This document shows positions 2,385-43,752 of a stretch of DNA of 64,000 bases, in pieces. The notes beneath the pieces are model-generated. The model was not told the origin of the DNA, did no database searches, and was given only the letters and a program-made list of their open reading frames with translations. Each line of letters opens with the position of its first letter. Position 1 is the first letter of the stretch. This DNA comes from a virus (lineage: Duplodnaviria; Caudoviricetes). The stretch is from the IMG/VR virus record IMGVR_UViG_3300024262_002316, positions 1,268 to 65,267 of that record; one strand, given 5' to 3'. Both the position numbers and the translations under genes were made by a program.

Positions 2385-2791
2385 TGTCGCGCTTCTCTGC
2401 CAATTGGATAGTAGAAGCATACACGACCTTTAGACTCTCACTTGAGCAGATATCGGATATTGCTGAAAAAGAAGAAATGTACATCCAGGCCCTCCTTGAA
2501 AAAAGAGGAGTTCTAGGCGGAAACTCTAAAAAACTCAAAAAAGTCAGTTTGAGGAAAAGAAATAAAATAGCTTCTTTGATTTATTTAGGTAATAAGTGCA
2601 AAATATGCAAATATAGCAAGTGTGAGGCTGCTCTAGAGTTTCATCATATCCACATGAAAGATAAGAGCTACAACATTTCTTCTGGCTTTAATCGCCCCTG
2701 GGCAGAGCTTAAGAGGGAATTAGATAAATGCATGATTGTCTGCTGCAACTGTCATAAAGAAATACACTACAAGAAAAAGGGGCTTATATGA
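2384..2791 (+). CDS. HNH endonuclease
   Basis: CKIC...LEFHH...KCMIVCCNCHKEIH. Confidence 0.85.
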   Translation: MSRFSANWIVEAYTTFRLSLEQISDIAEKEEMYIQALLEKRGVLGGNSKKLKKVSLRKRNKIASLIYLGNKCKICKYSKCEAALEFHHIHMKDKSYNISSGFNRPWAELKRELDKCMIVCCNCHKEIHYKKKGLI

Positions 2792-3582
2792 ATTGGAAAG
2801 GTATTCCATTAAAAGAAAGATCTATTAAATTCAAAGAATTGTCACTGGGGGCGTCTCATCAAGATAAATTGAATTTAATGGAAAATATGTACAAAGATGA
2901 GGCTATCTATATAGTGTCCTGTGGCCCATCTCTGGCTGACATACCCAAAGAGAAACTATTGGAAAAATTAGGTGACAAGCCTGTATTAACTATAAAACAA
3001 GCATTTGGAAAAGTTGGGGATGTATCAGATATACATCATTTTAACTGTAACAACTTCACAAATTACGATCTTAAAAACACCGTCTCAGTGGCTTCTGCTG
3101 GAAACAGCTCTCTAGACGGTATGCGGAAGTCACTTTGGGGTAACATTGAAGTAGATTTATTTTTTCCAGTTATAAACAATGGCAGAACTGTTTGCCACGA
3201 TAACAACTGGGAGGAAAACACTTATGCTAATAACCCACTCATGAGGCAATGGGGTCCGGGCACACTTCAAGAGACCGCCATATTTACTGCCGTACACACT
3301 GGGGCAAAACACATAGGCTTAATTGGTATAGATTTCGGGCCAATAGAGTGGGACGAATCGAAAGACGGCATATATCTACCACACTTCTATGACTCTGAAA
3401 ATGACCAAAAGCCAGGAAACTCCCCAAAAGGACAATTATTTCATGGTGAAAATAGATTAGTAATAGAGGGTACAAGGCAAATAAAAGAATGGTTAGATTC
3501 AAAGAAGATTAGTATTACTGTTGATAGTAATGGTAGTCATGTTCATGAATCAATAAATAGGGATTTTTGGCTATATGAATAA
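2788..3582 (+). CDS. DUF115/Maf/CstII-like glycosyltransferase-fold protein (putative CMP-ulosonate transferase)
   Basis: IYIVSCGPSL near the N-terminus and GAKHIGLIGIDF...HFY match the GNGPSL and GxKEIYLxGIDF motifs of the GT42/Maf/MptE-like fold. Confidence 0.65.
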   Translation: MNWKGIPLKERSIKFKELSLGASHQDKLNLMENMYKDEAIYIVSCGPSLADIPKEKLLEKLGDKPVLTIKQAFGKVGDVSDIHHFNCNNFTNYDLKNTVSVASAGNSSLDGMRKSLWGNIEVDLFFPVINNGRTVCHDNNWEENTYANNPLMRQWGPGTLQETAIFTAVHTGAKHIGLIGIDFGPIEWDESKDGIYLPHFYDSENDQKPGNSPKGQLFHGENRLVIEGTRQIKEWLDSKKISITVDSNGSHVHESINRDFWLYE

Positions 3583-3628
3583 CGAAAACCGTTTTAATGT
3601 TAGACCCCAGTAGAAATAGAGTAACAAA

Positions 3629-4378
3629 GTGAAACAATTGAAAACTTCTTTAGAAGAATTAAAAAAATTAGGAGTCGTAGGTGTTAAGCAGTCTACCGAA
3701 GACGAGGGCGCAGCATACGAAGATATAGCTTTAATTAGAGATATTTCTAGAAGCTGTGGATTAAAATTAAATATCAAAATTGGAGGCTGTGAAGCTAAAA
3801 CGGACATTTCTTTTTGTAATTCCATTAAAGTAGATGGAATTGTTGCTCCAATGATTGAATCAGAATTTGCGTTACAAAAATTTACAGAAAGCATATGTTG
3901 CATAGAAGATGCTGACTTCTACATAAATATAGAAAGCAGTACAGCAGTTGACAATCTTAATAAGATTTTAGAATCAAATTATTTCAATACTTTAAATGGG
4001 GTTGTTATAGGGCGAACTGATTTAGCTAAATCTTATGGATATGAAAAAGGAATGGTAGATTCCCCAGAAATGCAAAACAAGGTATACGATATCTTGAAAA
4101 CCTGTAGTAAAAAATCTCCCACCATGATAATAGGTGGCAACATTAATAAACAAAGTATTCCTTTTATTGAAAAGCTATATCGTGAGAATCTGTTACATTT
4201 CATAGAAACCAGAAACATTATTATTGATTTAAAAAAAGCTTTTGATAATGACTTAGAGGCAGTAATCAAAAAAGCTCTTATTTTTGAGTCTCTTTGGTTA
4301 GAATTTAAAGCGAATAAGTATTTAATGCAAGGAAAAGAATATATGGATAGGGCAAAACAAATTAGAGGAAGAATATGA
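3629..4378 (+). CDS. HpcH/HpaI aldolase/citrate-lyase family protein
   Basis: KIGGCEA, GIVAPMIES, INIES and IGRTDL motifs. Confidence 0.75.
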   Translation: MKQLKTSLEELKKLGVVGVKQSTEDEGAAYEDIALIRDISRSCGLKLNIKIGGCEAKTDISFCNSIKVDGIVAPMIESEFALQKFTESICCIEDADFYINIESSTAVDNLNKILESNYFNTLNGVVIGRTDLAKSYGYEKGMVDSPEMQNKVYDILKTCSKKSPTMIIGGNINKQSIPFIEKLYRENLLHFIETRNIIIDLKKAFDNDLEAVIKKALIFESLWLEFKANKYLMQGKEYMDRAKQIRGRI

Positions 4379-5523
4379 ATAACAGATATGAACTTTTAAA
4401 AAATTGGCTACTATCAGGCAACTGCTTTAAGATGATTTGTGGAGCAGGAAATGAAGACATAGTTCATGTAGAAAAACTATCTTTTATTTACACGCTTGCA
4501 GGAGCTAAGATTCTAGACGTTTCTGCAAACACATCAGTTGTAAAGGCTGCTAAAAAAGGGATTGATTCTGCCCTTAGTTTTGCTGAACGCGAAAATATAA
4601 ACACAATAGAACGTCCCTTCATTATGGTTAGCATTGGTATGCCAGGAGATCATCATGTTAGAAAATCATACATTGATCCAAATACATGTGTTAGCTGTAA
4701 ACTGTGTATACCAGTTTGCCCAACGGAGGCAATACCAACAGACTTTGTAGGGAGATTAGATTATTTTAAGTCTTTAAACGGCTCTTTGGATGAAGAAGAC
4801 CAGGATAAAGAAATTGTTATCAAAGATTTATGTATAGGTTGTGGAAAATGTAGTGCAATTTGTCCAAAACCAGGCATTATTTCTTACAGGCATAATCATA
4901 GGGAATTAGAAAAATTGTTGCCAGAATGTCTTGAAGCTGGTGCTGAGCTTTTTGAGCTTCATGCAGCAATAGATGACGATGAGCAAACCTTGAAAGAGTG
5001 GAAAATAATAAACGATATTAATTCTACTAATTATAACTCTATTTGTTTGGATAGGCTTAATTTGGGAAACATACATTTAGAACATCGTATTGCAGAAGTG
5101 AAAAAACTTTGCGATGACAGGCTAATTGTTCAAGCAGATGGATATCCTATGAGTGGAGGAGAGGACGACTATAATACTACTCTCCAAGCTGTTGCTTGCG
5201 CTGATGTTATTAATAAAAAATTTAATATGAAGAACAATACAAAACGCATAGTAGATAAGGTTGGAAGAACTAAAATATCTTCTAAGAAAAAATATAAAAA
5301 ATCTACATCTGTTCCTATAATATTATCTGGGGGGACAAATTCTTTTTCAAAAGAGCTTGCAGACAAAACAGAGGTTAGTATTAATGGGGTAGCCATAGGA
5401 ACATTTGCTAGAGATATTGTTCAAGAGTTTATAGAACCTGATGGCTTTCTTGATAATAAAGAAAAAATCATGTTAGCATATAATGTTGCTAGAGAGTTAG
5501 TAAAAAGGAATACTAATGAATAA
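4375..5523 (+). CDS. LdpA-like iron-sulfur protein (two 4Fe-4S motifs plus LdpA C-terminal domain)
   Basis: FKMICGAGNED..YTLAGA, CVSCKLCIPVCP, CIGCGKCSAICP, ELH, QADGYPMSGG, LSGGTN and GVAIGTFAR resemble cyanobacterial LdpA. Confidence 0.75.
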   Translation: MNNRYELLKNWLLSGNCFKMICGAGNEDIVHVEKLSFIYTLAGAKILDVSANTSVVKAAKKGIDSALSFAERENINTIERPFIMVSIGMPGDHHVRKSYIDPNTCVSCKLCIPVCPTEAIPTDFVGRLDYFKSLNGSLDEEDQDKEIVIKDLCIGCGKCSAICPKPGIISYRHNHRELEKLLPECLEAGAELFELHAAIDDDEQTLKEWKIINDINSTNYNSICLDRLNLGNIHLEHRIAEVKKLCDDRLIVQADGYPMSGGEDDYNTTLQAVACADVINKKFNMKNNTKRIVDKVGRTKISSKKKYKKSTSVPIILSGGTNSFSKELADKTEVSINGVAIGTFARDIVQEFIEPDGFLDNKEKIMLAYNVARELVKRNTNE

Positions 5524-5896
5524 TAATAAGTTGATCATAGCAGTAGATTTTGATGGAACTTTGTGCGAGTTCTCATTTCCCGACATAGGGGAACAAAAGG
5601 AAAAGCATAAAGCTTTAATGGATAGATTGATACAATTAAAAAACGAGGGTCACAAGCTCATCTTATGGACTAATAGAGGTGACAATGAAGAATACCCAGT
5701 ATTGACCGAGGCTATTGAATGGTGCAAGGAAAAAGGATTAGAGTTTGATTCTGTTAATGAGAATTTGCCTAATCAAAAAAAGCTATCTGGCTACAGCCCA
5801 AAGATTATGGCCGATGTTTACATTGATGATAAAGCCCTAGAGTTTAATAACAGCGATTCTATCAAAAAAACCTTAGATTTTTTAGCGAATTTATAA
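5516..5896 (+). CDS. HAD-superfamily phosphatase (capsule-biosynthesis/BT0820-like)
   Basis: IAVDFDGT, LWTNR and K..ADVYIDDK motifs. Confidence 0.85.
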   Translation: MNNNKLIIAVDFDGTLCEFSFPDIGEQKEKHKALMDRLIQLKNEGHKLILWTNRGDNEEYPVLTEAIEWCKEKGLEFDSVNENLPNQKKLSGYSPKIMADVYIDDKALEFNNSDSIKKTLDFLANL

Positions 5897-6633
5897 TGAA
5901 TATAAAAGATAAATTAAAATCTGGCGAGAACGTATATGGTACATGGTGTGTAATTCCATCACCTGAAGTTGTTAATGTAATATCAAAATCTGGACTAGAT
6001 TTTATTATTGTTGATATGGAGCATGGGCCTATGGATCATGTTACAGCTCAACGTATGGTTACATCTACTCAATCTGAAAAATGCAACGCTATTGTTAGGG
6101 TTCCAAGTAATAATGAGTCAGATATATTAAAGTCATTAGATATTGGTTCGGATGGTATAATAATACCTCATGTTAATACAGTTGAAGATGTACAAAAGTG
6201 CGTAAGTTATTCTAAATACTCACCAATAGGGAATAGAGGCTATACCCCTTACACTAGATCTGGTGGATATCACAATAAAGTTGACTACAAAAATAAAGAA
6301 AATGAAAAAGGTTTTGTCGGGGTGATTCTTGAGAGTACAGAGGGTCTTAGTAATATTAGCTCAATAGTTGACAATGAACATGTGGACATGGTTTACATTG
6401 GAGCCTATGACCTGTCTGCTAGTTTAGGTTGTTCTGTAAATGACAAGAAAGTTCTGGATGAACTTGAAAGATGTGCCGAAATAACTAGAAATGCTAACAA
6501 GTCAATTGGCTGCTTGTTTCATGATCAAAAAGAATTAAATCTTTTTAAGAACATGGGAGTAAACTTTTTGGTCTATGGAGTAGACAGCTCTGTATTGTAT
6601 AATGGGTTTTCAGAAATTAAAAAATGGAGGTAG
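5896..6633 (+). CDS. HpcH/HpaI class II 2-keto-3-deoxy-acid aldolase
   Basis: DFIIVDMEHG, VRVP, IIPHV, YSPIGNRG and IGAYDLS motifs. Confidence 0.9.
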   Translation: MNIKDKLKSGENVYGTWCVIPSPEVVNVISKSGLDFIIVDMEHGPMDHVTAQRMVTSTQSEKCNAIVRVPSNNESDILKSLDIGSDGIIIPHVNTVEDVQKCVSYSKYSPIGNRGYTPYTRSGGYHNKVDYKNKENEKGFVGVILESTEGLSNISSIVDNEHVDMVYIGAYDLSASLGCSVNDKKVLDELERCAEITRNANKSIGCLFHDQKELNLFKNMGVNFLVYGVDSSVLYNGFSEIKKWR

Positions 6634-6639
6634 ATAACA

Positions 6640-7398
6640 ATGTTTGACAAAAAAGTCGTAGTTATTATACCATCTAGGTATAAATCTACTAGATTTCCCG
6701 GTAAACCTTTAGTGGACATACTAGGAAAGCCTATGGTTATTAGGGTAGCAGAATCATCAGCAGAAGCAGTTGGCAAAGATAGCGTCTATGTAGCAACAGA
6801 TGACAAGAGAATAGGGGAAAGGGCAATAGAACACGGATTCAATGTAATATACACATCAGAAGAATGTTTAACGGGAACTGACAGGGTGGCAGAAGCTTCT
6901 TTGGATATAGATGCGGATGTAATTGTTAATGTTCAGGGAGATGAAGTTTTGCTGGACCCTAGTAATATATTGAAGGTCATTAAAGAAAAAATAAATAGTG
7001 AAAACTCAGTAGTGACCTGTATGGCGAAATTAACACCTTCAGAAGATCCAGGCGATTTAAAAACATGTAAAGTGGTTACTAATCTAAAAAAAGAACTAAT
7101 GTATGCATCAAGAGCCCCTATTCCTTCAAGCAAGAGTGGCATCGTTGAAAATGCCTACAAGCAAATATGTGTATATGCTTTTAATAAAAAACAGCTTAAA
7201 GATTACTACGATAAAGGGAAGCAACAAGGCAAGACGCCATGTGAGTATTCTGAAGACATAGAGATTATTCGTTTTTTAGAGATGGGAATAAAAGTAAAAA
7301 TGGTTGAAGTTGAGGGTGGAACTTTGGCTGTTGATTTCCCTGAAGACGTAAAAGAAGTAGAAAAAATACTTAAGTCGAAAGATTCGATGTATAAATGA
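6640..7398 (+). CDS. kdsB: KdsB-like 3-deoxy-ulosonate cytidylyltransferase (CMP-Kdo synthetase family)
   Basis: IPSRYKSTRFPGKPL, VATDD, TGTDR, NVQGDE, YASRAPIP and EDIEIIRFLE motifs. Confidence 0.9.
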   Translation: MFDKKVVVIIPSRYKSTRFPGKPLVDILGKPMVIRVAESSAEAVGKDSVYVATDDKRIGERAIEHGFNVIYTSEECLTGTDRVAEASLDIDADVIVNVQGDEVLLDPSNILKVIKEKINSENSVVTCMAKLTPSEDPGDLKTCKVVTNLKKELMYASRAPIPSSKSGIVENAYKQICVYAFNKKQLKDYYDKGKQQGKTPCEYSEDIEIIRFLEMGIKVKMVEVEGGTLAVDFPEDVKEVEKILKSKDSMYK

Positions 7399-8027: not shown

Positions 8028-8696
8028 TTATGCACCAAAATTAAAGACACACCCAAGTCTGCCCGTTAGAGCACCACTTGTAGTTGCTGTCGCAGATAAT
8101 CCTAATGCAAAATAATGATCTGTTGCTAGAGAATAGCCATTTCCTACGGTGTGAGGATTAAGAGCTAAAGAAGAGCCAGATCCATTAATTGATGGCCACG
8201 AAGATTGTAAACATCCGTCTTTGTCATATTCGACGGCATAGAACGTTGCCCCGCTTGGGGCGGCTGTTACAGTGATTCCGTCATCCATCCAGATTTCCGC
8301 CGAGTTAACAAGAAAAACAGAGGCGTCATCGCTTGATAGTTTAACGAAAACAGTGCCAGAGGGCCTAAGTGTAAAGTCTGGAAGAGAACCTGAAACTACT
8401 CCGGTTATTCCGGCTAAAGATCCTGAGTATGCTACGGATCCACCTGAGTGAGCAGTAATAGCTACACCTGTGCTTGATATTCTTTTATTGTTTACTAGTT
8501 GTCCAGATGTGCCAGCACTTCCAGCTACGGATCCAGCATCATCAGATATCCAAGTAGTATCTTGGAAAAACCCTGAGACAACACCGGCTCCAGATGTGGA
8601 AGCAGAAAATCTAAAATGATCAAATGTGCCAGAGCCTAGTTCTGCTATTGATACACCTGTTAGTGAACTATGAAAAAATTCTACATTAACAGCCAT
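8028..8696 (-). CDS. Putative virion structural protein (SG-rich)
   Basis: Ser/Gly/Thr-rich beta protein at the end of the tail operon, with a GGAGG RBS and its own CGTATA motif. Confidence 0.6.
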   Translation of the reverse strand: MAVNVEFFHSSLTGVSIAELGSGTFDHFRFSASTSGAGVVSGFFQDTTWISDDAGSVAGSAGTSGQLVNNKRISSTGVAITAHSGGSVAYSGSLAGITGVVSGSLPDFTLRPSGTVFVKLSSDDASVFLVNSAEIWMDDGITVTAAPSGATFYAVEYDKDGCLQSSWPSINGSGSSLALNPHTVGNGYSLATDHYFALGLSATATTSGALTGRLGCVFNFGA

Positions 8697-8720
8697 AGTT
8701 ACCTCCTTTACCTATTCTAT

Positions 8721-8726
8721 TATACG
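8721..8726 (-). promoter_or_regulatory. CGTATA putative late-promoter motif
   Basis: CGTATAATAG upstream of 8696. Confidence 0.5.
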
Positions 8727-8728
8727 TT

Positions 8729-10504
8729 TTAACCTGCATACGAAACTTCTGGATCAGTAGTTGTTATTATGTATGGGTATGTTATTCTAAGTTCTGAGAA
8801 AGACGTTTCTAAAGTTGGAGCCCAACCAGATATTCCTGCTTTTACGCTGTCAACAGTAGAGCTTATATAACTTGAATCCCATCCATATATCCATAGTCCT
8901 AAAACAAGATCTGCGACCATGTTTCCTGCCGTCCAGTGTCCCGGAGGTGATTCGGTCCAATCTCCAGATGGGTGTACTTCTGATTCAACATATTTATATT
9001 GTCTGTCTCCGCCTATTTTAACGGATGTCAATGTTCCACCAAGATGATCTGAATGTCCAGTAAAACCCCCCGCTGTAGCTTCCAATGCCCACATATCAAT
9101 AGGACTAGATGTCGCCTCCGCTCCTCCTCTTGAAGTTGCTCTAAAGCAATCATCAACTTGGTTAAACGATGCATCTGTTACAGTGTCCATATTTGTACTA
9201 GTAAAAGATATAATTTCATCATTTGCTGTAGAGAACCCAGAGCCAGCAGATCCAGATCCAGAGTTTAATGTTCCATCTAATATAAGCTGTGACCCTGGTC
9301 CAAATCTCATTACTCCATTGTCATAGGAAAAAGCATAAGATGGGTTATTTCCAGAGTTAACATCCGTTCCACCTTCGTTGTCTAATGCCAACTGAGCCCA
9401 ACATGCAGTTGGCGACAATTGAAATGTTGAATTTATTGTTCCAGTAACTCCAGTAGTTAAAGATGGCAGAACTTTGTCTCCGTTGGTAGCAAATGGAACT
9501 ATCGCATCTAGAACTGGGTAATCACTATATACAGAAGTATCTATAGTTACAGCCCCGCTAGAAGCAGACCACTTTCCGTCAATAACCATCCATTTACCAA
9601 ATTGTCCTCCTTGAAAGAAAGACCTACCAACAGTGTTGTTATCTAACCAATCATTAACAGTTCCAAAAGCACCACCTCCTCTTGTTGAGGTTGCATAAGT
9701 TGCAGTTGTTTGATCATTATAAAATGTTTCAGTTTGAGGAGGAACCCAAATCAAGCTTTGTAATATCCAAATTGGTGCCATCATCTGTCCATATTGGTGA
9801 TATCCACCATTCTCTGTCACTGGGTCGTTTCCAACCTCTATCTTCTGACTCTGACTACCTTCTATTATTTGCCCATGAACATCTCTTCCGCCTGTAGCAG
9901 TTATGAAGGTATCTAGTCCAGTTGTCCTATTTGTTCCACCTATGTCTATACCAGCAAAAGATGTCATTCCAGATACTTCAGAGACGGTAAATGGCCACAG
10001 TCCGCCTGATGCGCGAGTCAAACAATCTATTGATGCTACTCCAGACCACATAGGAACTTCTACATTATCTCTTATTCTCATTGCGGCAGGAGATCCGGCC
10101 ATCCTCCATCTATAATCAAAAGATCTTCTAAAATAATCTACCATAGTATCTGTATAAGTAGAATTTGTAACTACTCCAGATATTGCTGTTTGAAGATCTC
10201 TAACATATAAGTGAAATGTATTTATAGGACTTAACCCTATTTGTGTCTTCATTTGATTTAAGGTAAAACCACTCATTGAGACAGCGTTGGATTCATCTGG
10301 TCTAAAGTAGCCAGAGAAAATAGTGGCAGCTCCACCTCTCTCAGTTTCAGCAAAGTTGATTCCACTTATACATGCAGCTATGGCTGGGGCAGAGATAGGC
10401 AAGAAATTATCTTGATCTATTGGCTCTAACTCCATAGGTACTGCATTAGATGCTACATAGGCTGTTCTTAATGCTTGCCTGTATGCGTCTGCGCTTATTG
10501 CCAT
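8729..10504 (-). CDS. Putative tail-tip/receptor-binding protein
   Basis: 591 aa, S/G/T-rich, distal tail gene position. Confidence 0.55.
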   Translation of the reverse strand: MAISADAYRQALRTAYVASNAVPMELEPIDQDNFLPISAPAIAACISGINFAETERGGAATIFSGYFRPDESNAVSMSGFTLNQMKTQIGLSPINTFHLYVRDLQTAISGVVTNSTYTDTMVDYFRRSFDYRWRMAGSPAAMRIRDNVEVPMWSGVASIDCLTRASGGLWPFTVSEVSGMTSFAGIDIGGTNRTTGLDTFITATGGRDVHGQIIEGSQSQKIEVGNDPVTENGGYHQYGQMMAPIWILQSLIWVPPQTETFYNDQTTATYATSTRGGGAFGTVNDWLDNNTVGRSFFQGGQFGKWMVIDGKWSASSGAVTIDTSVYSDYPVLDAIVPFATNGDKVLPSLTTGVTGTINSTFQLSPTACWAQLALDNEGGTDVNSGNNPSYAFSYDNGVMRFGPGSQLILDGTLNSGSGSAGSGFSTANDEIISFTSTNMDTVTDASFNQVDDCFRATSRGGAEATSSPIDMWALEATAGGFTGHSDHLGGTLTSVKIGGDRQYKYVESEVHPSGDWTESPPGHWTAGNMVADLVLGLWIYGWDSSYISSTVDSVKAGISGWAPTLETSFSELRITYPYIITTTDPEVSYAG

Positions 10505-10512
10505 ATCTAATC

Positions 10513-13500
10513 CTAACTAGTAGAGAAAGGTAGAGAGGAGAAGGTTGCGCCCATTGACATACATATTAATCTAAATGTAGGAGTAGCAGCTCCCGTGTCT
10601 TCTTTTAGTCTAAAAGCTATTACTGGATCTCCAACCGCAACTGCTCTTGGGTCCATGCTTACAAATCTAACGTTGAAGACTGTTCCATCTATTGTTCCAC
10701 CATCAGTGTACACAGTTTGTCCTATAGAAGAAGTGTAAAGTGATACGGCTCCAGCTAGCCCAGTGTCAGCGGGCGCAGTGCTTACAAAGCCTGCGAAAAC
10801 ACTTGTACCACCTCCAAGGTTGTCAATGAAAAGATCTGAGTCACCATTTCCATCTGGAGTGAAGTCATACTTTCTTATATTAGTTTGACCCCTAGGAGCT
10901 ACAATAGATATCTTAGATCCATTTACTAGTTCTGTATTATTCTGATCTATCAATGGAACATTAGTTAGAACTATAGCAACCCCACTTGTAGATGGAATGG
11001 TCGTGACATCAACTGTAAAGAAATCTGTTCCACTGACCGAAACTGTATTTACATCTGAAGTTATTGTTACAACTTTAGCTTCTGATATATCAACTCCACC
11101 AGTGTAATACTGAACAGAAGATCCGTCTTCCTGCTCTTCGTAGTGATATGTCGCCCTCATGCCTATGTCTAGGAGACCGTCAGTGGCTCTAGCCTCTCTT
11201 GTAGCGGGCGTACCTCCACCAGCCGATAGCGGTCTAGGGTATTCAATGTTGCGATCATCTTTTGAAAGATAATAAGGATCCCCCGTAGCTCTATCAAATA
11301 CCTGAATAACTGTAACTGGAATAGACTTTTTAGCCTTCTCGGAGGCTCCCATCCTTACAGTTCCCTCATCTTCTGGGTTAATAAAATCAGGTAAATTTAG
11401 AGAGTTGTCTCTTATTGCAATTATGTCTTGTTGTATCTTATGAAGGATAAAGCTGAAATCTTCTTCGATTTCATCTAAGACTGGCTTAGCTTTTATTAAC
11501 TGAGGGAAGTGAGGTTTTACACTGTACCTAGTTCTCCAGTAGTCTTGGCCGCCTCTATTTATATTAATAGAGGTAATGCCGTGACTTATCGTTCCATATC
11601 CTTGGCCGTCTTTTGTCTGTTTAGCGAATTCATCAAACGAAATTCCAGGTAATCCTACTTTCTGGACTTCAGCATGTGTAACTGAACTTGTATTTATCTT
11701 TTGGGAAGATAGGTATGCAGTTACATCATCTGTAAGTCTCTCGATACTGTCCTTGTCAGCTCTTGGTTCGAAGTTCCAGGGAGAATATCTCTCGTCGATG
11801 ATAGTCTTTAATCTTTCTCCAGCTCCACTTGTCCAAACAAAAGGATAAGCGTAACCATATCTTCTCTTGGCTTTTATCGGAATAGCTATTCCAACTACAC
11901 CCTCTGTATCTCCACTTGCTGAAATATTGCCAGAAGCACTAAGTTTTTCATAAGGCTCAAGTATATTAATTGGACTTTGGATGTCAGATGTTAGATTCCC
12001 ACTGTAAGCTACTTGTGCCCCACTTGCAGTAACAAACAAACTAGTCAATGTTGTATCAACTTCAATTTGTCTTACAACTCTATTAGGCAATGTTACAGAT
12101 ACTCCCTTTTCATTTCCGTCCCAGTCTATAAGAGGGTCAGTAAATCTACTCCTAGCACTCTTCCACATATCAATCTTAATGGGAATAAACTGATTAGTAG
12201 AGTTCTCATTCCACTTCTCAATTGGTGCAGGAGAAGCCTCTCCTAGATTTCCCCATTGGGTTCCAGACTGGAATACTGCGAATGCTCTAATCTTGTTTGT
12301 TCTGGAGTCATAAAAAGGTGACAACATATTGTACGTTGAGTCTATTTTGTAGCCATCTTCGAACGTTCCAGATGTTTGGTTTTCGAGATTGCACCAAGCT
12401 TGATTGACTACATCGAAGTCATCTATGAACCCATACAAGGTTGAACTAGGACTTAAGATGTAGGTTTTACCATAATGCTGATCTGCGAAAGTTCTAACTC
12501 TGTTGTACCAAGAAACAACCCAAGGTTGGTCTTTGTACCTGTTGGTTATCTGGACTACGTTAACACCTGGAGCATTTGTTTGACTCAAGTCTATGAATCC
12601 AGATACGGGATCCCAACCACTTTGAGTGATTCGGTTTCCTAATCCTTTGTGTGCAGCCCAAATCTCTATGTTTGTTAAAGCTTTTCTAAGCTCAATACTA
12701 GTAGGAGTGTATTCATCTAGTTCACCGTCTGGGCCGAAGTATTTTATAGTTACATCTTCCCAACCGGCATCGAATATTGGTTGACCAACTGTTATACCTA
12801 GATCATACGCCAGGTTGAATGCACCACTTTCGGGGATTAGGGTTCCTGAACCTAGGATTCCCTCCATCCCTGCTCCGAACAACCTAACCTTGTTTGGCTT
12901 GTCGGCTTCGTCGTTTCCGTATTTGAATGAAATTGTCTGAGATGTGTCTCCAGAAAATGGGATTTCTGTTTTAGTAAGAGACACTCCAAACTTTCTATTT
13001 ACAACAGCTACTTTGTTTTCCTTCATGTTCCAGTAAAAATCATAAGAAACGTCTCTTAGTATTCTACCTATGGCAGTAAGGAAATCTGTGGCTATAAATC
13101 TCCAGCGGTATGCGTCAAGATCTCCTGGAAGTTGATTCTCAATTACATCTGGAGTAGGTAGAAGCTCTAGTAGGTTTGAAGTAGTTCCTAGTGTGTTTTC
13201 AAAATAATCAACTGCGTTGTAGATCTGTCTGTAGCTTGCACCATTGTCTCTTATTGATTCAAATTCTTTTACAGCAGTCTGTCTAGCAGAACCAGATGCC
13301 TGAGTCACTACGGTAACTAAGTACCAAAAACATACATCAATTATATTGGTTTCAGGGGTATCATTTCTACCATGAACACCCTGGGTGTCTAAGTAGTAGT
13401 TCTTAAGATCAGTTCTGTGGTCTTCAATAGAAACGCTTATTAGGTTGCCTTTATCACTCTTGGAGTAATCAGCGTGCTTTACTTCTCCTTTTATAAATAA

Positions 13501-13755
13501 CTCACCTACGGAGAATTCAACATCTGTGCCTATGGTTGGAAGTGTTTCTGTTGCAAAGTCGGCAGGTATATATTGTAAGTCAAATCTATGGGCAGACGAA
13601 CCAAATCCAAATGTAGCATTTATACTAGATAGATATGCTTCAACTCCGACTCCCATTACAGCAGACGGAAAAACTACCAATTCATTTTGATACTGAGTTG
13701 ACAGCCCTGATACAGAGACTGTTCCGCTAACCACTAGATAGTCCAAGTCTATCAA
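10513..13755 (-). CDS. Putative tail-tip hub/central fibre protein
   Basis: 1080 aa downstream of the tape measure gene. Hub-like N-terminus (SINATFGFG...SVSIED...YDFYWN...NKVRLFG). Confidence 0.6.
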   Translation of the reverse strand: MIDLDYLVVSGTVSVSGLSTQYQNELVVFPSAVMGVGVEAYLSSINATFGFGSSAHRFDLQYIPADFATETLPTIGTDVEFSVGELFIKGEVKHADYSKSDKGNLISVSIEDHRTDLKNYYLDTQGVHGRNDTPETNIIDVCFWYLVTVVTQASGSARQTAVKEFESIRDNGASYRQIYNAVDYFENTLGTTSNLLELLPTPDVIENQLPGDLDAYRWRFIATDFLTAIGRILRDVSYDFYWNMKENKVAVVNRKFGVSLTKTEIPFSGDTSQTISFKYGNDEADKPNKVRLFGAGMEGILGSGTLIPESGAFNLAYDLGITVGQPIFDAGWEDVTIKYFGPDGELDEYTPTSIELRKALTNIEIWAAHKGLGNRITQSGWDPVSGFIDLSQTNAPGVNVVQITNRYKDQPWVVSWYNRVRTFADQHYGKTYILSPSSTLYGFIDDFDVVNQAWCNLENQTSGTFEDGYKIDSTYNMLSPFYDSRTNKIRAFAVFQSGTQWGNLGEASPAPIEKWNENSTNQFIPIKIDMWKSARSRFTDPLIDWDGNEKGVSVTLPNRVVRQIEVDTTLTSLFVTASGAQVAYSGNLTSDIQSPINILEPYEKLSASGNISASGDTEGVVGIAIPIKAKRRYGYAYPFVWTSGAGERLKTIIDERYSPWNFEPRADKDSIERLTDDVTAYLSSQKINTSSVTHAEVQKVGLPGISFDEFAKQTKDGQGYGTISHGITSININRGGQDYWRTRYSVKPHFPQLIKAKPVLDEIEEDFSFILHKIQQDIIAIRDNSLNLPDFINPEDEGTVRMGASEKAKKSIPVTVIQVFDRATGDPYYLSKDDRNIEYPRPLSAGGGTPATREARATDGLLDIGMRATYHYEEQEDGSSVQYYTGGVDISEAKVVTITSDVNTVSVSGTDFFTVDVTTIPSTSGVAIVLTNVPLIDQNNTELVNGSKISIVAPRGQTNIRKYDFTPDGNGDSDLFIDNLGGGTSVFAGFVSTAPADTGLAGAVSLYTSSIGQTVYTDGGTIDGTVFNVRFVSMDPRAVAVGDPVIAFRLKEDTGAATPTFRLICMSMGATFSSLPFSTS

Positions 13756-13812
13756 TATTTAACATTGAAACCCTTCATTTTGAATTTTATATCCTTATAC
13801 TTGTACCTACCC

Positions 13813-14703
13813 CTAGACATTAAACCCCGTTTCTATTGAATCTGTTAGATAGACTGAACCACTTGGCCCACTATATAGATACGAACAAATTGCAATATAA
13901 TTACCGGGTTGAGCGTAATTTCCAGAAGGATTTACTTTTTGACTACGACCATTGTTTCCAAAGCGCCACCAAAGCAACCCATCAGACGGTGATGATAGTG
14001 ATACTCCGCTAGCTCCGCTACTACTAAAACTAACTGGTAAATAGCTTTCAGAAGTGATTAGCCCAGATTCAGGGGTCGCTGAGCCTGATAGGGCTCCCAA
14101 GTCAGAAGCGGATAGGCCAGAGGCTAGATTTAATCTAAATTTCTCCATATTGACAACACCATCAACGTCTTGTACCCTTGTTGTAATGTTATATATCCCA
14201 CCGTAACTGTAAACATGGGAGGCAGAGAAAACCCCGCTTGTTACGGTTAATCCTCCAGAATAAGAATTTATTCCTTCTGAAAAATCAATTGATGCATTGT
14301 GTATATTTTTTAAACCAGAGTAAGATCCTGAGACTGTAACAATTAGACCTGAGGCACTACTATAATCAAACGAATCCAATTCAGTGGCCCCACTGCCATT
14401 GACTAAGACGGCACCAATGTCTCCAGACGGAATAGGGACTTCTTCCCCCACCCTTATTCTGGCTCCAAAGTCAGTATTGTTAGTTCTTTGTACAGATATA
14501 GAAGAATAAAATTCACCAGATACGGCAAACTCTGCTCCCATAGTTATAAATAAGGGCAACCTATGATCTTGTGCAGTTACACCAGATGAATTAACGACAA
14601 TATCTAATGTCATTAAAGCAGAGGCATTTGAAGTTGTACCAGACCCTATCGCTGACAGATAAGATCCCATCAATCCACTAGCTACTCCTGATACTGTTGC
14701 CAT
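13813..14703 (-). CDS. Virion protein with PKD/Ig-like domains (SG-rich)
   Basis: IDFSEG...SHVYSYGGIYNIT and WRFGN...NPSGNYAQPGNY are PKD-like motifs. Confidence 0.6.
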   Translation of the reverse strand: MATVSGVASGLMGSYLSAIGSGTTSNASALMTLDIVVNSSGVTAQDHRLPLFITMGAEFAVSGEFYSSISVQRTNNTDFGARIRVGEEVPIPSGDIGAVLVNGSGATELDSFDYSSASGLIVTVSGSYSGLKNIHNASIDFSEGINSYSGGLTVTSGVFSASHVYSYGGIYNITTRVQDVDGVVNMEKFRLNLASGLSASDLGALSGSATPESGLITSESYLPVSFSSSGASGVSLSSPSDGLLWWRFGNNGRSQKVNPSGNYAQPGNYIAICSYLYSGPSGSVYLTDSIETGFNV

Positions 14704-15169: not shown

Positions 15170-15212
15170 TATTAAACCTTGCTATTCTTGTAAATGATTA
15201 CTATTCCTATGC

Positions 15213-17678: not shown

Positions 17679-17688
17679 TTAATTCACC

Positions 17689-18246: not shown

Positions 18247-18255
18247 TATTTATCC

Positions 18256-32263: not shown

Positions 32264-33121
32264 CTAACAAAGATCTTGCGGACCACTGCTAGAATCAAAA
32301 GGACTGCTATAGTCCCTGGTTCCAGCCGAGTCTCCAGCGTGATCTACATCTGTTATTGTAAAACTGTTATCATACGTTATAAGTCCACCGTGAAGAGCTG
32401 GGTTAGAAGAAGAATTAGGATCATTGAATAGATATTTTGCTACAGCGTCACTTAACTCTGAACATGCATCAAGGACTACTTGGTTATGTCCACCGAAACT
32501 AGCTGTAGTATCTATCTCTGAATCGCCATCTCTAACTTTGATGCCTTTTCCAACAGAGTTTCTTCTTATGTTTTTTGATATTAGACATTCCATTTGCAAA
32601 ATTATCAAGTCATGAACACTAGAGTCTGGAGTTGGAAGAACACTACTTGTAGTTTGATCCAATGACAGCTCATAGTCAGTTCCGGTTAAGCTAAGATTCC
32701 TATTAAGTCTATTCAAAGATTTTACCATAAATATATCCATTTGAGCATCTGTAAACAGAGTATCATCTATGGCTAGATCTAGTTTTACTTGATCATAGAA
32801 ATTATCAACATTAGTAAACCCAGCATCTAAAGCGGTAGCCACCTCAAATGATTCGCTATGTGAAGTAGTAACTCCAACTGGGCTTATTACTGTCCAAGTT
32901 ATTAGCCAGCCAGTAAGGGCACCTGAGGGGACAGCTCCAAAGTTTCTAGCATCATGGTGGCCTACGGTTTGTTTAAACCCAGATACTCCACTTGGAGCTA
33001 GCTTTGTTCCACTTGGATCAAATATATCAAAAGTTATACCAGATGGGTCAGTTAAGACTCCACCGAATCTAGTGTAAATATCAAGACCAGATGGTACTGA
33101 TCCCGCCTGTATTAATGGCAT
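32264..33121 (-). CDS. Putative head-tail adaptor with an N-terminal SG-rich domain
   Basis: Helical C-terminal half (QVKLDL...SLNRLN...IKVRDGDSEID); position upstream of the head-closure gene. Confidence 0.5.
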   Translation of the reverse strand: MPLIQAGSVPSGLDIYTRFGGVLTDPSGITFDIFDPSGTKLAPSGVSGFKQTVGHHDARNFGAVPSGALTGWLITWTVISPVGVTTSHSESFEVATALDAGFTNVDNFYDQVKLDLAIDDTLFTDAQMDIFMVKSLNRLNRNLSLTGTDYELSLDQTTSSVLPTPDSSVHDLIILQMECLISKNIRRNSVGKGIKVRDGDSEIDTTASFGGHNQVVLDACSELSDAVAKYLFNDPNSSSNPALHGGLITYDNSFTITDVDHAGDSAGTRDYSSPFDSSSGPQDLC

Positions 33122-33133
33122 TCTGCCTCCTTA

Positions 33134-34306
33134 TTAATCAAGAAATAGTACTTCCATACTGGAGGGCGTTCCTCCTCCTCCTCCAGATCCAATGATCTGA
33201 GGAGTAACAAGTCCGCTCACTATAACATTACAATTAGGACCAGAGTTGTCAGTATAGTGTCCTACTCCTCTGATAACAATAGTTCCAGATACGCATGAAG
33301 AATCTATTAGTATGTTGGCAGAGTCTACATCTAAAGAAGCCGCCATATTAGGACCATTGAATCCGCTTACCTGTAATCCACCATGATAGCCGCGTAAATT
33401 CAACTGTAGACCAGATATTCCTGCTGCGTCAATTATTGGTGTACTAGTTCCAGCAACATTGCTGAAGCAATCAACAAACTCAACTATGTCATCGGCGTCC
33501 GTGTTGGCCAATGAAATTGTTCCAGCAAGTCCACCCTTAATCATGCGTCCTTCAAAGTCAGCAATAGAAGAGAATGACGAAACATCTCTGGCTGTGATTG
33601 AACCATTTAAATCTCCAGTAAGTATCATCGCTCTAAAAACAGAGTTGGCATTCGATGCTCCAGTAATGAAGTTTATGCTAGCCAATTTGGAATCATCTCC
33701 CACTATATCGTAGTTGTCAATTGACTCCCCAGATCCAACTACTAACGCACCGCGTAAGTGAATTCTATTGGGTAGGGTTCTTTGCACAATAATAGTTTGA
33801 GCGTCAGCCAGGTTGTTAACTGGTGAGCCAGGAGTACCTAAAGGAAAACTTGTCCCCGGTGTCCCAGCATCTATGTCAATCCAAACTCGTGCATCTGTAA
33901 ATGATTGATCTTCTACCTGTTTAGAGTAAGTAAGACCAGCAGAGTTGGCCGTGTTTACTCCAACTTGGTTCTTGATTGTTTTATCAGCTATGTTAGAGTT
34001 ACCTCCAACTATATTTACGTTATACAAACCATCTTCAAATAAAACTACATATGGAGTAAGGATTTCAACCACCCTAGCCAATGTTACACCCGCTACCGTG
34101 AGTGGAGCGGTGTGAACGTGATTAGTAGGAAATACCATTCCTTTTTCGTCATCCATTAGATCATTCAATATCTTACGGAAGTCATCAATATTTAACTGAC
34201 GAATTTCTGTAGGGCCACCAAACGTCACATCGGTCATATCCGTTTTAGGGATATTGATAATGTACTGTGGAGTGTTCTGATTAGAATAGTCAATGGTTAT
34301 GGCCAT
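33134..34306 (-). CDS. Virion accessory protein
   Basis: MAITID...VAGVTLARVVEI..Y.V.FEDG.YNVN...NSAGL N-terminal domain and a GTPGSPVNNLADA motif. Confidence 0.55.
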   Translation of the reverse strand: MAITIDYSNQNTPQYIINIPKTDMTDVTFGGPTEIRQLNIDDFRKILNDLMDDEKGMVFPTNHVHTAPLTVAGVTLARVVEILTPYVVLFEDGLYNVNIVGGNSNIADKTIKNQVGVNTANSAGLTYSKQVEDQSFTDARVWIDIDAGTPGTSFPLGTPGSPVNNLADAQTIIVQRTLPNRIHLRGALVVGSGESIDNYDIVGDDSKLASINFITGASNANSVFRAMILTGDLNGSITARDVSSFSSIADFEGRMIKGGLAGTISLANTDADDIVEFVDCFSNVAGTSTPIIDAAGISGLQLNLRGYHGGLQVSGFNGPNMAASLDVDSANILIDSSCVSGTIVIRGVGHYTDNSGPNCNVIVSGLVTPQIIGSGGGGGTPSSMEVLFLD

Positions 34307-39270: not shown

Positions 39271-40272
39271 TTAGAGTGAACCTAGTATCGCACGACGGTT
39301 ATCGAGGCAAGCGAAGCCAAGCTCCATCCAACCATACACTCCAGCTTTACCCGAACGGTGAAGCGCAGCGTCGTCGAACATTTCCATGTCCTCACGAACC
39401 GGCATTACGAAGCTATCTCTGCGACCGAGGTCAAGTCCTACACAGAACTCAGCATCAGAAGCCGCGAGTGAAGCACTGATAGTGCCAGTAAGGTAAGTTT
39501 GGAACTCTTGAGCAACACCAAGCTCTTGAAGCTCGCGAAGGCGAACACCAAAGAGACTGGGAAGCGGCTCTTCACCATCATGGTTGATTAGTGAGCGAAG
39601 GGTTGCATCGTCAACTAAAGTATCGCTAAAGTTACGGATATCCGCAATAGCCTCAGGGCTAAGGAAGAGATCAGTGAGCTTGCCATCACGGTTTCCAGTG
39701 AGACGCTTCACGCTGGTTTGCATACCAGTTAGAAGGGCCTTAGTGAACACTCCAGAAGAAGCGGCAGAATCACTTACAACCGAGTTGTCGTTGGCACAAG
39801 CGAGAATGACGTGCCAGCCATCGTCGTTCATCTTGCGAGTGAAACCGTTAGTGAAAACGGAAATCGCACGCTCAATGACATCCCAACGTGCATCGCGGGC
39901 GTATTCAAGGTTCCAAGAGATAGCATTAGCAATCTTATAAGTAGGAACGTGGACCTCATCGCCGTCGATCACGCGGTTAGGAATGCGACCTTCAGCCGGT
40001 ACGACGAATGCTTTATGCTCATCAGAGCCAGCAACAGTCGGGCTGTAGAAGTCAAGAGGAAACTTAGCATCAATACCCGGAGCAACATCTATGCGGGTAA
40101 AAATCTCATCAAGGATGTCCGGCTCGAATGCTCCAGTTTTCCAAACCTGCTCCATAACCTGCGCTAGTACAGCGCGGTTCTCAAGACTCTTCGGATCAGA
40201 CCCAGCGGTAGATCTGAGCAAGTCTTTTCTCTCATTTAGTTCAGTGTTGTCTTCATGACTCATTTTGTTCAC
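39271..40272 (-). CDS. Major capsid protein
   Basis: 333 aa after the protease and decoration genes, with biased codon usage and a strong terminator. Motifs YARDARWDV, LFLSPEA and FGV.L..L.ELG. Confidence 0.8.
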   Translation of the reverse strand: MNKMSHEDNTELNERKDLLRSTAGSDPKSLENRAVLAQVMEQVWKTGAFEPDILDEIFTRIDVAPGIDAKFPLDFYSPTVAGSDEHKAFVVPAEGRIPNRVIDGDEVHVPTYKIANAISWNLEYARDARWDVIERAISVFTNGFTRKMNDDGWHVILACANDNSVVSDSAASSGVFTKALLTGMQTSVKRLTGNRDGKLTDLFLSPEAIADIRNFSDTLVDDATLRSLINHDGEEPLPSLFGVRLRELQELGVAQEFQTYLTGTISASLAASDAEFCVGLDLGRRDSFVMPVREDMEMFDDAALHRSGKAGVYGWMELGFACLDNRRAILGSL

Positions 40273-42768: not shown

Positions 42769-42774
42769 TATACG
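42769..42774 (-). promoter_or_regulatory. CGTATA putative late-promoter motif (protease/capsid operon)
   Basis: CGTATATAATAG upstream of 42715. Confidence 0.5.
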
Positions 42775-42786
42775 AACTTACAATTG

Positions 42787-43254
42787 TTAATCTTTGTTTT
42801 CGATTTTTTCTTTAACTAAGTCTTTATAGGCTTTCAATAATTGCTTGTGGCCCATTATTTTGTCAGCAGTCTTTTCTACCCCACGACTACCTATGTATCC
42901 ACCAATTCCTATTTTAATAACATCCCATGCATCAGGGGGAAGGTCTTTAGCTCCATTGATTCCGAAGTGTTCAAGTACAACCAAGAGAAAGAGGCCAGTC
43001 ACGACTATTGGTCTCCATGACCTTGTTAGCCAAGAATCACTTCCTGCTTCGGCGGTTATAATAGAAGCTTGGCCATCTATCTTGGCTTTCTCCAGCTCTA
43101 TCATTTTTTCTTTGACACCTACTTGTATCTTAGCCATCTCGTTTTCCAGCTTCATCTTCTCTTCTTTACTAAGATGTAGATCATCGATTAAATCGACTGC
43201 TGGCTTAAATATAGATGCTATAAATGCTAATATGCTCATTATATATTGATCCAA
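42787..43254 (-). CDS. Holin (3TM, GTA-holin-like)
   Basis: IDDLH.S.EEK, EA.S.SWL.RSWRP, hydrophobic segments and GYIGSRG.EK. Confidence 0.8.
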   Translation of the reverse strand: MDQYIMSILAFIASIFKPAVDLIDDLHLSKEEKMKLENEMAKIQVGVKEKMIELEKAKIDGQASIITAEAGSDSWLTRSWRPIVVTGLFLLVVLEHFGINGAKDLPPDAWDVIKIGIGGYIGSRGVEKTADKIMGHKQLLKAYKDLVKEKIENKD

Positions 43255-43260
43255 TCTTTT

Positions 43261-43752
43261 TTAACTAAAGTTAGCGTAGAATCTACCATAATAAGCACTA
43301 TCTGTATCTGATCTATGTAAAAGCACAAAATCAACAGCATTAGCTGTAGCGGTCAGCGTGGGAATTGTTCCACCTGGCCACTGAACTTCTGCTGGCCAGG
43401 TTATTGTTCCACTCCCAGCGGGGTTTTGATGAATAACAAACTTATAATCAGCTCCACCTATGACGTTGGAAAAATCTAAAGTTGTACCTGATGTACTAAG
43501 ACTTAGATTTACCATAATCCCATCTGCAAAATCTATAGAGGTTCCAGATCCGGTAACTGTTACAGGTTGTTCGACAATATATGTATCAGCAATCATTAGT
43601 CTACCAGATGCATCAACTTTTACGGGATATCCGTTTTCTCCATTTGAAAAAACCGAAAGCGTAGAACCAGAGGTTCCTCCGTTTGTTAGAATTCTTCCAT
43701 CTGTGTCAACAGAAATCGCATTTCCAGTTGGTCCATATCTAAATATTGGCAT
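43261..43752 (-). CDS. Fibre-associated protein (paralog of the C-terminus of 43767..45284)
   Basis: VDxxGxL repeats plus QxxxGxxTITWP..V.WPGG..PTLT..ANAVD domain. Confidence 0.55.
   Translation of the reverse strand: MPIFRYGPTGNAISVDTDGRILTNGGTSGSTLSVFSNGENGYPVKVDASGRLMIADTYIVEQPVTVTGSGTSIDFADGIMVNLSLSTSGTTLDFSNVIGGADYKFVIHQNPAGSGTITWPAEVQWPGGTIPTLTATANAVDFVLLHRSDTDSAYYGRFYANFS

Follow-up and report, generated by a model that had tools for sequence, protein, structure and literature searches.

The window analysed here is a stretch of 64,000 nucleotides, bases 1268-65267 of a 65,267-bp viral contig (IMG/VR record IMGVR_UViG_3300024262_002316, hereafter G000) that is rated 43% complete. Its gene content is that of a siphophage of ~150-180 kb with a T5-type tail tube. 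Portal, capsid, tail tube, tape measure and distal tail genes lie on the minus strand, and an operon of sugar-acid genes (2788..7398) on the plus strand adjoins the tail module (Table 1). We examined the dipeptide serine-glycine (SG), which is in excess in outer virion proteins encoded here, together with the glycan genes of this genome and of its relatives. The first-pass annotation had read SG as a virion-wide O-glycosylation site served by this operon, which it took to make and transfer a sugar acid activated with cytidine monophosphate (CMP).

The 49 main open reading frames (ORFs) of the window were translated, and SG and the reversed dipeptide GS were counted against 2000 composition-preserving shuffles per protein. 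SG reached a z-score of at least 3 in 10 of the 49 ORFs, with a maximum of z=9.1 in an 821-amino-acid (aa) protein (15213..17678; 39 SG vs 12 GS); a 296-aa protein (13813..14703) had 20 SG vs 6 GS (z=5.7). All SG and GS counts of the first-pass annotation were reproduced exactly, and both the enrichment and its direction held against the shuffles. Summed without selection, the nine ORFs that follow the tape measure gene in an unbroken row (8028..20147) contained 128 SG against 48.0 expected, and 57 GS. Pooling 14 virion proteins (5523 aa) gave 170 SG against 62.2 expected (z=16.3), and SG was the sole outlier among the 400 dipeptides, with VS second at z=4.5. GS (z=1.4), NG (z=0.1) and DG (z=-0.9) were not enriched in this pool, nor were AG and GG, and TG was depleted (z=-2.4). 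The remaining 26 minus-strand proteins (12,504 aa) had 69 SG against 73.4 expected, and TG was mildly enriched there. As claimed before, SG was nearly absent from the tape measure (1739 aa; 6 vs 11.8 expected), the portal (688 aa; 4 vs 3.3) and the 617-aa protein that begins at 34525 (2 vs 6.1), none of which was enriched; a 715-aa neighbour of the last had 5 vs 5.1.

The serines of the 170 SG sites were encoded by TCT (80), AGT (41), TCA (29), AGC (12), TCG (5) and TCC (3), which agrees with the protein-level signal from mixed serine codons proposed earlier. A DNA-level repeat or codon artefact was ruled out, since both codon boxes were used and non-virion genes on the same strand had no bias. 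Shared domains or paralogy were likewise ruled out, because BLAST found no homology among the 14 pooled proteins; the only match involving one of them was that of 43261..43752 to a protein outside the set, 43767..45284. Among 116 ORFs of at least 140 aa from T5, lambda and T4, which served as controls (sheath, fibres, baseplate and Hoc with its immunoglobulin (Ig) domains included), the top SG z was 3.0 and the overall observed/expected ratio 1.09-1.45, so a general property of tail proteins was ruled out too. These results showed that the SG bias is real, directional and at the level of protein, and that it is no general trait of phage tail proteins.

Two further sources of the excess were rejected. 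Replacement of the deamidation-prone NG and DG would have left a deficit of these dipeptides, and the one seen (NG 32 vs 31.7, DG 32 vs 37.3 expected) was too small for ~108 extra SG. The 'DSSG' motifs of LamG domains were considered because the 821-aa protein is akin to viral LamG/ConA-like proteins (score 0.91, a lead only), and a few such domains would hardly yield 39 sites. The same protein contains the short peptide SG-x-[IM]-GSY-[ML]-L twice near residues 580-605, and the 296-aa protein contains it once at its N-terminus; it may be a docking or assembly motif. The sole non-virion ORF with a noticeable SG excess was a 353-aa protein (54802..55863; 7 vs 2.9, z=2.8) that has a dUTPase domain at its C-terminus and whose N-terminal half is unexplained.

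The bias was then examined in relatives from a clade of 41 records, 13 of which are at least 90% complete and are called complete genomes below. G002 is a complete genome of 168,570 bp with terminal repeats, and it shares synteny with the window over the virion module. Its ORFs with z of at least 3 clustered in that module and reached z=6.5; its tape measure (8 SG vs 8.5 expected), capsid protein (0 SG) and portal were flat. G003, G010, G019 and G034 behaved like G002, with giant proteins at observed/expected SG of 53/18.7, 76/31.1, 96/34.6 and 55/20.0. Capsid protein and portal were flat in G019, as were the genes at the tape-measure position in G019 and G034. Across G000, G002, G019 and G034, no enrichment was found in those tape measure, portal, capsid and chaperone-position genes that were identified, not all of them in each genome.

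More than 300 relatives of the tail tube protein are in the protein database, and 144 related stretches were found in IMG/VR, many on contigs of 140-180 kb. In 120 tail tube homologues SG occurred 800 times vs 413 expected and GS 428 times vs 413; over the 10 kb on each side of the tail tube gene in 72 IMG/VR loci, the ratio of observed to expected had a median of 1.57 for SG and 1.02 for GS. Of its 11 SG sites, the window's tail tube shares four with that of G002 (54% identity) and eight with that of G001. S211-G212 was present in 39 of 39 homologues and S265-G266 in 38, and the rest in 1-21 of the 39. SG sites turn over and their density is retained. Judged from these statistics, the SG excess is a selected protein-level motif common to a whole clade of ~140-180 kb T5-like siphophages, whose GC content ranges from 0.31 to 0.49.

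Several observations concern the SG-rich proteins and the relatives themselves. Giant SG-rich proteins of 1348-4148 aa are encoded in the more distant clade members G019 (112329..119999 and 94958..99085) and G034 (129023..141469 and 155316..159362). Their genes occupy two fixed places, one between those for capsid and neck and the other directly after the tape measure; BLAST of these proteins gave no match in the window. Relatives of the tail tube (L152-L163) lie on contigs binned with metagenome-assembled genomes (MAGs) of Omnitrophota, Alphaproteobacteria, Flavobacteriales, SAR202, Verrucomicrobiales and Promethearchaeota. One more lies in a 4.9-Mb record titled Heimdallarchaeota chromosome, which might reflect a provirus or a mis-join, and another protein homologue is labelled Hodarchaeales.

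The residues around SG were also constrained. At the 170 window sites, the position before the serine (-1) favoured P, V, A or G, with D once and R never, position +2 favoured V, T, A or L, and position +3 favoured F, Y, L or I; a like pattern was seen separately in G002, G003, G010, G019 and G034. In a pooled test over the six genomes, the 782 SG sites of 47 SG-rich proteins were set against the 710 of 591 other proteins, a design in which choosing proteins by their SG count leaves the flanking positions unbiased. P or A at -1 was enriched 2.68-fold in the SG-rich virion proteins vs 1.05-fold in the others, and a hydrophobic residue at +2 1.55-fold vs 1.05-fold. Charged residues at -1 were reduced to 0.33-fold vs 0.94-fold, and around virion SG they were also depleted at -3 (0.47-fold) and +2 (0.53-fold). 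This extended context was not found around TG, AG or NG within the same SG-rich virion proteins of the six genomes. The motif therefore appears to have roughly the form of an uncharged residue at -3, any residue, P or A (also V or G) at -1, Ser, Gly, V, I, L or T at +2 and a hydrophobic residue at +3. This extended motif is roughly the unit under selection.

Table 1. Genes of the window that bear on the SG motif and on glycan synthesis (window coordinates; strand; evidence and remarks).
Feature	Position	Strand	Evidence and remarks
CAP59/GT2-like glycosyltransferase (275 aa), C-terminal part	1..474	+	gene starts at genome 914
MptE/DUF115-like protein, 264 aa	2788..3582	+	Maf/sialyltransferase-like fold; model pLDDT (predicted local distance difference test) 77.7
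Divergent HpcH/HpaI-type aldolase-like protein	3629..4378	+	PF03328 1.2e-6; NCBIfam weak, sub-threshold
LdpA-like protein, two 4Fe-4S clusters	4375..5523	+	Fer4 families, PF12617
Small HAD-type phosphatase, BT0820-family relative	5516..5896	+	NF046079 2e-26, 93 bits vs cut-off 165
HpaI/GarL-like class II pyruvate aldolase	5896..6633	+	PF03328 1.7e-28; TIGR02311 5.1e-40, under equivalog cut-off
KdsB-type cytidylyltransferase, CMP-Kdo synthetase subfamily	6640..7398	+	PF02348 2.4e-40, 139.1 bits vs 22.6
Distal tail module, nine ORFs	8028..20147	-	downstream of tape measure; eight SG-rich, z 2.9-9.1
Distal tail ORF	8028..8696	-	
Distal tail ORF	8729..10504	-	
Distal tail ORF	10513..13755	-	
Distal tail ORF	13813..14703	-	296 aa
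Distal tail ORF	14678..15169	-	163 aa; zero SG
Distal tail ORF	15213..17678	-	821 aa
Distal tail ORF	17689..18246	-	
Distal tail ORF	18256..18798	-	
Distal tail ORF	18810..20147	-	
Tape measure	20219..25438	-	PF10145 3.4e-21; tail-internal
Major tail tube, T5 pb6 type	27484..28728	-	model pLDDT 76.8; SG z=4.1
294-aa SG-rich protein	29026..29910	-	adjoins tail tube gene; SG 8 vs 2.1, z=4.4
285-aa and 390-aa proteins	32264..34306	-	SG 7 vs 3.0 (z=2.5); 7 vs 3.7 (z=1.9)
Two Gly-rich proteins, 617 and 715 aa	34525..38540	-	GC 0.46-0.48; no SG excess
Major capsid protein	39271..40272	-	PF25209 27.4 bits vs cut-off 27
Candidate capsid cement/decoration protein, 157 aa	40308..40781	-	SG 4 vs 0.9, z=3.7; PF09956 Phage_cement_2 21.2 bits, under cut-off 24
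163-aa protein, tail-fibre-like C-terminus	43261..43752	-	PHROGs 9017, 7760; SG 5 vs 2.0, z=2.4
Portal	45724..47790	-	phrog_16240 1.2e-6
Gmd (GDP-mannose 4,6-dehydratase), C-terminal part	63294..63998	-	PF16363 1.5e-38; gene cut by window end

The fold of the tail tube model matched PDB chains 7qg9_G (1.1e-7), 8xan_A (6.2e-7), 9iny_A (3.3e-5) and 8ed0_A (1.6e-4) with TMq 0.40-0.45, all of which are tail tube proteins, of T5, SH-Ab15497 and P74-26. Eight of its 11 SG fall within residues 1-110. The first-pass annotation expected SG sites to lie in exposed loops of predicted structures. In the tail tube, the protein modelled for this purpose, 10 of the 11 did lie outside strands and helices, mostly directly before strands, and S211-G212 lay inside a predicted strand. 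The distal tail module is syntenic with that of G002. The 294-aa protein may have a neck or tail-completion role, judged from its position, and its orthologues keep five of its eight SG sites in G001 and three in G002.

Roles of most SG-rich proteins are proposed from gene order, as PHROGs, Pfam and PDB sequence searches with them came back empty. No PHROGs match was obtained for the nine tail-module ORFs or 25453..26130, and no PDB sequence match for the 821-aa and 1080-aa proteins. The tail tube and 821-aa proteins had no tblastn match in 50,697 phage records, and an IMG/VR scan with the 821-aa protein found nothing.

Other features of the virion module stood out. The segment 33134..39218 has a GC content of 0.46-0.48 vs ~0.39 and encodes the 390-, 617- and 715-aa proteins followed by an HNH endonuclease. 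BLAST found no homologue of these three proteins in G001 or G002, and the segment appears to have been inserted recently between the neck and capsid genes; the 617-aa protein (phrog_19630 'virion structural protein', 2.4e-7) and the 715-aa protein were probably acquired recently. A holin-like gene (42787..43254; phrog_3427, 6.8e-28) lies within the head module, between the portal and capsid genes. The genome is also unusually rich in inteins (Hint and LAGLIDADG domains). They are found in PhoH (657..2384), a 576-aa virion-module protein (30524..32254) whose G001 and G002 homologues have 178-182 aa, a 1457-aa protein beside the portal (47840..52213) and the class II ribonucleotide reductase (55802..60703), and in G002 in the core GT4-like gene (81220..84285) and DnaE (85719..92642).

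Glycan genes are conserved across the clade. A core GT4-like protein of ~560 aa was found in 35 of 41 records, the Gmd family (PF16363) in 38, PF00534 (GT4-type) in 34 and PF00535 (GT2) in 32; the first three occur in all 13 complete genomes and PF00535 in 12. The core GT4-like gene is sometimes split by an intein. In G000 a truncated copy lies outside the window at genome 7-927, where the contig starts inside the gene, and this fragment has 57.5% identity over 106 aa to the 1021-aa GT4-like protein of G002. The first island gene after it encodes the CAP59/GT2-like transferase, whose full ORF matches PF11735 (1.6e-13) and PF00535 (4.6e-7). The core transferase gene is separated from the convergent end of the tail genes by a variable island, in which cassettes are swapped at one fixed position. 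It holds a GT9+GT2 fusion, an AAA protein, an MT-A70 methylase, GT2 and GT9 in G002. In G000 it holds the CAP59/GT2-like transferase, the intein-bearing PhoH and the KdsB/Maf-like cassette. In a second lineage (L165) the order is core transferase, CAP59-like transferase, KdsB fusion, more genes, a Maf-like gene and then SG-rich tail proteins. In G000, G002, G010, G019 and L165 the island and the tail module converge at the end of the latter, and in G034 the two lie ~30 kb apart. GT9 (PF01075) was present in 3 of 41 records (G002, G003 and G009), adjoining the tail module, and had no match in G000, a 43% fragment of 65 kb; a PDB sequence search with the G002 GT9 protein also gave no match. ThyA-type enzymes, the usual prerequisite for glycosylated hydroxymethyl-pyrimidine DNA bases, occur in 2 of 41 records.

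The first-pass annotation had proposed to test whether SG enrichment goes together with glycosyltransferase, kdsB and DUF115 clusters; GT4-like and Gmd genes are present in every complete genome, and kdsB and the DUF115-like gene are rare. Its gene calls for KdsB (NCBIfam), the aldolases (PF03328), the GT2/CAP59-like transferase (PF11735, PF00535) and Gmd (PF16363) stand. For its CstII/Maf-like protein (2788..3582), the fold was borne out and the family assignment by Pfam was not: PF01973 scored 26.8 bits, under the cut-off of 34.6, and covered only profile positions 135-167, and the database's precomputed label assigns PF01973 to this protein and its eight relatives. The best Foldseek match of its model was Maf 5mu5 (E 4e-5, prob 1.00, TMq 0.48), followed by MptE HPPK 8sd5 and the sialyltransferase ST8SiaIII 5bo8, and the protein is a candidate transferase for a CMP-activated ulosonic acid. 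The full Maf architecture (~600 aa with flanking substrate-binding domains) was not found; because the protein has 264 aa vs 632 residues in the solved Maf chain (target-normalised TM 0.23), there is no room for a substrate-binding domain. A PDB sequence search with the protein gave no match.

KdsB (6640..7398) exceeded two NCBIfam cut-offs (NF009905, 265.8 vs 255 bits; NF003952, 232 vs 193) and stayed under the equivalog models (TIGR00466, 127.9 vs 155.2; NF003948, 154.6 vs 281), which places it at subfamily level only. The PseF model gave 31 bits vs a cut-off of 205.7, so the enzyme is of the KdsB type, for 3-deoxy-D-manno-octulosonic acid (Kdo), and not of the PseF/NeuA type; by its family, Kdo would be its substrate. 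Canonical KdsA and KdsD are absent from the operon, with HpcH-type aldolases in their place, and the 5896..6633 aldolase may make the 3-deoxy-2-ulosonic acid. A pathway from pyruvate aldolase through phosphatase and CMP activation to transfer of a Kdo-like acid is a reasonable inference. The operon also holds a homologue (4375..5523; NF045992 LdpA 2.8e-43, 148 bits vs cut-off 450) of the cyanobacterial clock-associated Fe-S protein LdpA, for which we know of no role in ulosonic acid synthesis.

The operon had been proposed as the cause of the SG bias, and its distribution contradicts this. Among the 41 clade records, PF02348 (KdsB) was confined to two, G000 and G005, and none of the 13 complete genomes had it; PF01973 had no match in G001 or G002. 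The Maf-like protein has nine family members, itself included, among 5.8 billion proteins, and four IMG/VR loci, vs the more than 300 relatives of the tail tube. No homologue of any of the six operon genes was found in G002, which has the SG bias all the same, so the bias occurs also where the operon is absent. L165 keeps KdsB and a Maf-like gene at the same place beside SG-rich tail proteins. The KdsB/Maf-like operon is a rare lineage-specific add-on, unable to explain the clade-wide SG pattern. By the first-pass annotation, related phages without glycosylation genes should have no such bias. G002 is biased and operon-less, which taken literally counts as a refutation, yet the relatives do carry the core GT4-like, Gmd and other transferase genes. 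Virion glycosylation at SG therefore remains compatible with these genomes, with another enzyme as the likely initiator. Of the earlier interpretation as a whole, the sequon-like signal and the gene calls survive, and the link to the operon does not.

Our preferred interpretation, held tentatively, is that SG marks serines that would be O-glycosylated by conserved machinery of the clade. The modification of the motif, the acting enzyme and the identity of the glycan we infer as follows. The motif would form a strand-turn-strand element, and its serine would be glycosylated in the cytoplasm while the outer virion proteins fold or once they have folded. These proteins are the distal tail and fibre proteins, the cement protein of the capsid and, in its outer domain, the tail tube. 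The core GT4-like enzyme would be the initiating transferase; a single conserved initiator is preferred because it is more economical than several unrelated transferase families reading one motif. Gmd would provide a GDP (guanosine diphosphate)-6-deoxyhexose precursor, and enzymes of the variable island would extend or cap the glycan, differing by lineage. In G000 the aldolase/HAD/KdsB/Maf-like cassette would supply a CMP-activated Kdo-like acid, added as an outer sugar, and G002 would use GT9 and GT2 instead.

What was established directly comprises the motif and its specificity, the confinement of the motif to certain virion proteins, its occurrence across the clade, and how the glycan genes are distributed. 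Several of these features favour glycosylation by the clade's own enzymes. The specificity is of the sequon type, with SG alone enriched and TG depleted here and enriched elsewhere. The extended context is confined to virion SG, sites turn over with density kept, and SG lies in loops of the tail tube. Two apparently new high-GC proteins and the internal proteins are without enrichment. The core GT4-like and Gmd genes are conserved, cassettes are swapped in the island, and ThyA-type enzymes are rare.

Other points weigh against glycosylation at SG. All of its support comes from gene content and from the statistics of sequences. The exposed protein of highest abundance, the major capsid protein, is without SG excess (2 vs 1.7 expected). 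The exposure of SG serines was judged by the secondary structure of one model, that of the tail tube, and there the invariant S211-G212 looks structural, unlike an acceptor loop. Matches of the core GT4-like enzyme in PDB sequence searches were weak (BshA, E 7e-4; GtfA, 0.09-0.18), and its Atlas neighbours were viral GT4 proteins. The glycosyltransferases could instead target DNA by a non-ThyA route, or host envelope glycans. As the core transferase is present in all 13 complete genomes, the clade offers no natural negative control.

The motif could also be purely structural, a [P/A]-S-G-hydrophobic tight turn into a beta strand which is reused in beta-rich tail and fibre proteins, never modified, with the transferases serving DNA or the host surface. 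The position of SG at loop-to-strand junctions in the tail tube model agrees with this, hydrophobic residues at -3, +2 and +3 suit a strand-turn-strand element, and the two tail tube sites that are invariant in 38-39 of 39 homologues are what would be expected of structural residues; it also has no need of a modification for which all the evidence is sequence-based. Such a turn does not easily account for the choice of dipeptide, since these proteins show no enrichment of NG and DG, both classical turn formers, and a deficit of TG. In T5, lambda and T4, beta-rich proteins of the tail and fibres and those bearing Ig domains stay at z of 3.0 or below, the genome's own Gly-rich, high-GC structural-like proteins have no bias, and the 14 proteins have no detectable homology by which one fold motif could have spread. 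We regard a purely structural origin as the main rival, only somewhat less likely than glycosylation.

Another chemistry such as phosphorylation or acylation, or a host cytoplasmic O-glycosyltransferase common to the clade's hosts, would suit the Ser-specific, Gly-dependent selection as well as any enzyme that needs an accessible serine hydroxyl, and the clade's contigs are binned with MAGs of many phyla. No pointer to a kinase or acyltransferase turned up in the clade genomes, in which these were not searched for systematically. The GC range and the wide scatter of bins do not sit easily with a shared host enzyme, and the conserved phage-encoded transferases are a simpler source; we consider this explanation improbable. 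Direct O-linkage of the operon's CMP-activated acid to SG serines by the Maf-like protein, as the primary system, has a genuine KdsB, a suitable fold, its place beside the tail module and the arrangement of L165 in its favour, and given the scarcity of these genes, the bias of G002 and the short protein it is very unlikely, and as the cause of the bias already largely refuted.

To our knowledge, there are very few known cases of glycosylated phage virions, and none has been linked to a sequence motif. In the literature on phage O-glycosylation, on Maf or pseudaminic acid on capsids, on virion sequons and on phage Gmd, we came across no description of an SG motif in the virions of phages. Should SG be an acceptor site, sequence alone would suffice to predict virion glycoproteins, and a glycan coat would be present on a whole, environmentally widespread phage clade. 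By default, phage glycosyltransferases, Gmd and sugar-acid cassettes are mostly taken to modify DNA or to alter the host surface; O-glycosylation at SG would give the orphan glycosyltransferases, Gmd genes and sugar-acid cassettes of large phage genomes a concrete role, and the variable island by the fibre genes would point to diversifying selection on the phage surface itself. It is conceivable, and put forward with reserve, that a widespread uncultured clade of T5-like phages coats its tail, fibres and cement protein with O-glycans at an SG sequon spread through at least 12 unrelated virion proteins, where the GT4-like enzyme would start the glycan and the hypervariable island diversify it, giving phage serotypes. 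If the motif is purely structural, it would still be an unusually strong lineage-specific dipeptide bias and a caution against reading sequons from composition.

In eukaryotic proteoglycans, Ser followed by Gly is the attachment dipeptide for xylosylation, and the sequon requires acidic neighbours. The analogy with this system drawn in the first-pass annotation fails, as the phage SG flanks are depleted of charge at all three positions given above. Chlorovirus PBCV-1 has its own Gmd and glycosyltransferases, and its virion protein is glycosylated in the cytoplasm at a non-canonical sequon. The phage clade resembles it in carrying both kinds of gene; in PBCV-1, a virus of eukaryotes, the glycans are N-linked and borne by the major capsid protein. 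The Maf flagellin glycosyltransferases, which use CMP-nonulosonic acids, share with the window a MptE/DUF115-type fold (5mu5 best) and a gene beside a CMP-sugar-acid synthetase. They differ in length (632 residues vs 264 aa) and in the sub-cut-off Pfam match; KdsB is not of the PseF/NeuA type, no flagellin is involved, and the cassette is rare in the clade.

In mycobacteriophages, phage-encoded glycosyltransferases decorate capsid and tail tube subunits (Freeman et al. 2023, as cited in PMC12619734). Phage-encoded transferase genes beside structural genes are common to both, here as the island next to the tail module. In the mycobacteriophage system, according to that citing text, two proteins bear the glycans, at their C-termini; here a short motif is scattered over at least 12 proteins, the capsid protein is spared, and the glycan is a prediction.

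The TibC/Aah family is the nearest precedent for the preferred mechanism. According to PMC4358343, TibC modifies serine and not threonine, e.g. Ser-313 in NSGG, via a loop protrusion, and glycopeptides of TibA are rich in SGG in Table 1 of PMC3835316. In these accounts the bacterial autotransporter heptosyltransferases (BAHT; TibC/Aah on TibA/AIDA-I) hyper-glycosylate many serines in the cytoplasm, on a beta-rich surface protein with the acceptor loop between strands. The phage pattern of SG (z=16.3) vs TG (z=-2.4), with SG in loops before strands, resembles this, the phage modification being a prediction, and GT9-type genes lie beside the tail module in three close relatives. There are also differences: GT9 was unmatched in the 65 kb of G000 and occurs in 3 of 41 records, the G002 GT9 protein has no PDB sequence match, any likeness to TibC being presumptive, and the phage motif has P or A at -1, not N. 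Where BAHT enzymes act on one repeat protein, the phage substrates would be many unrelated virion proteins.

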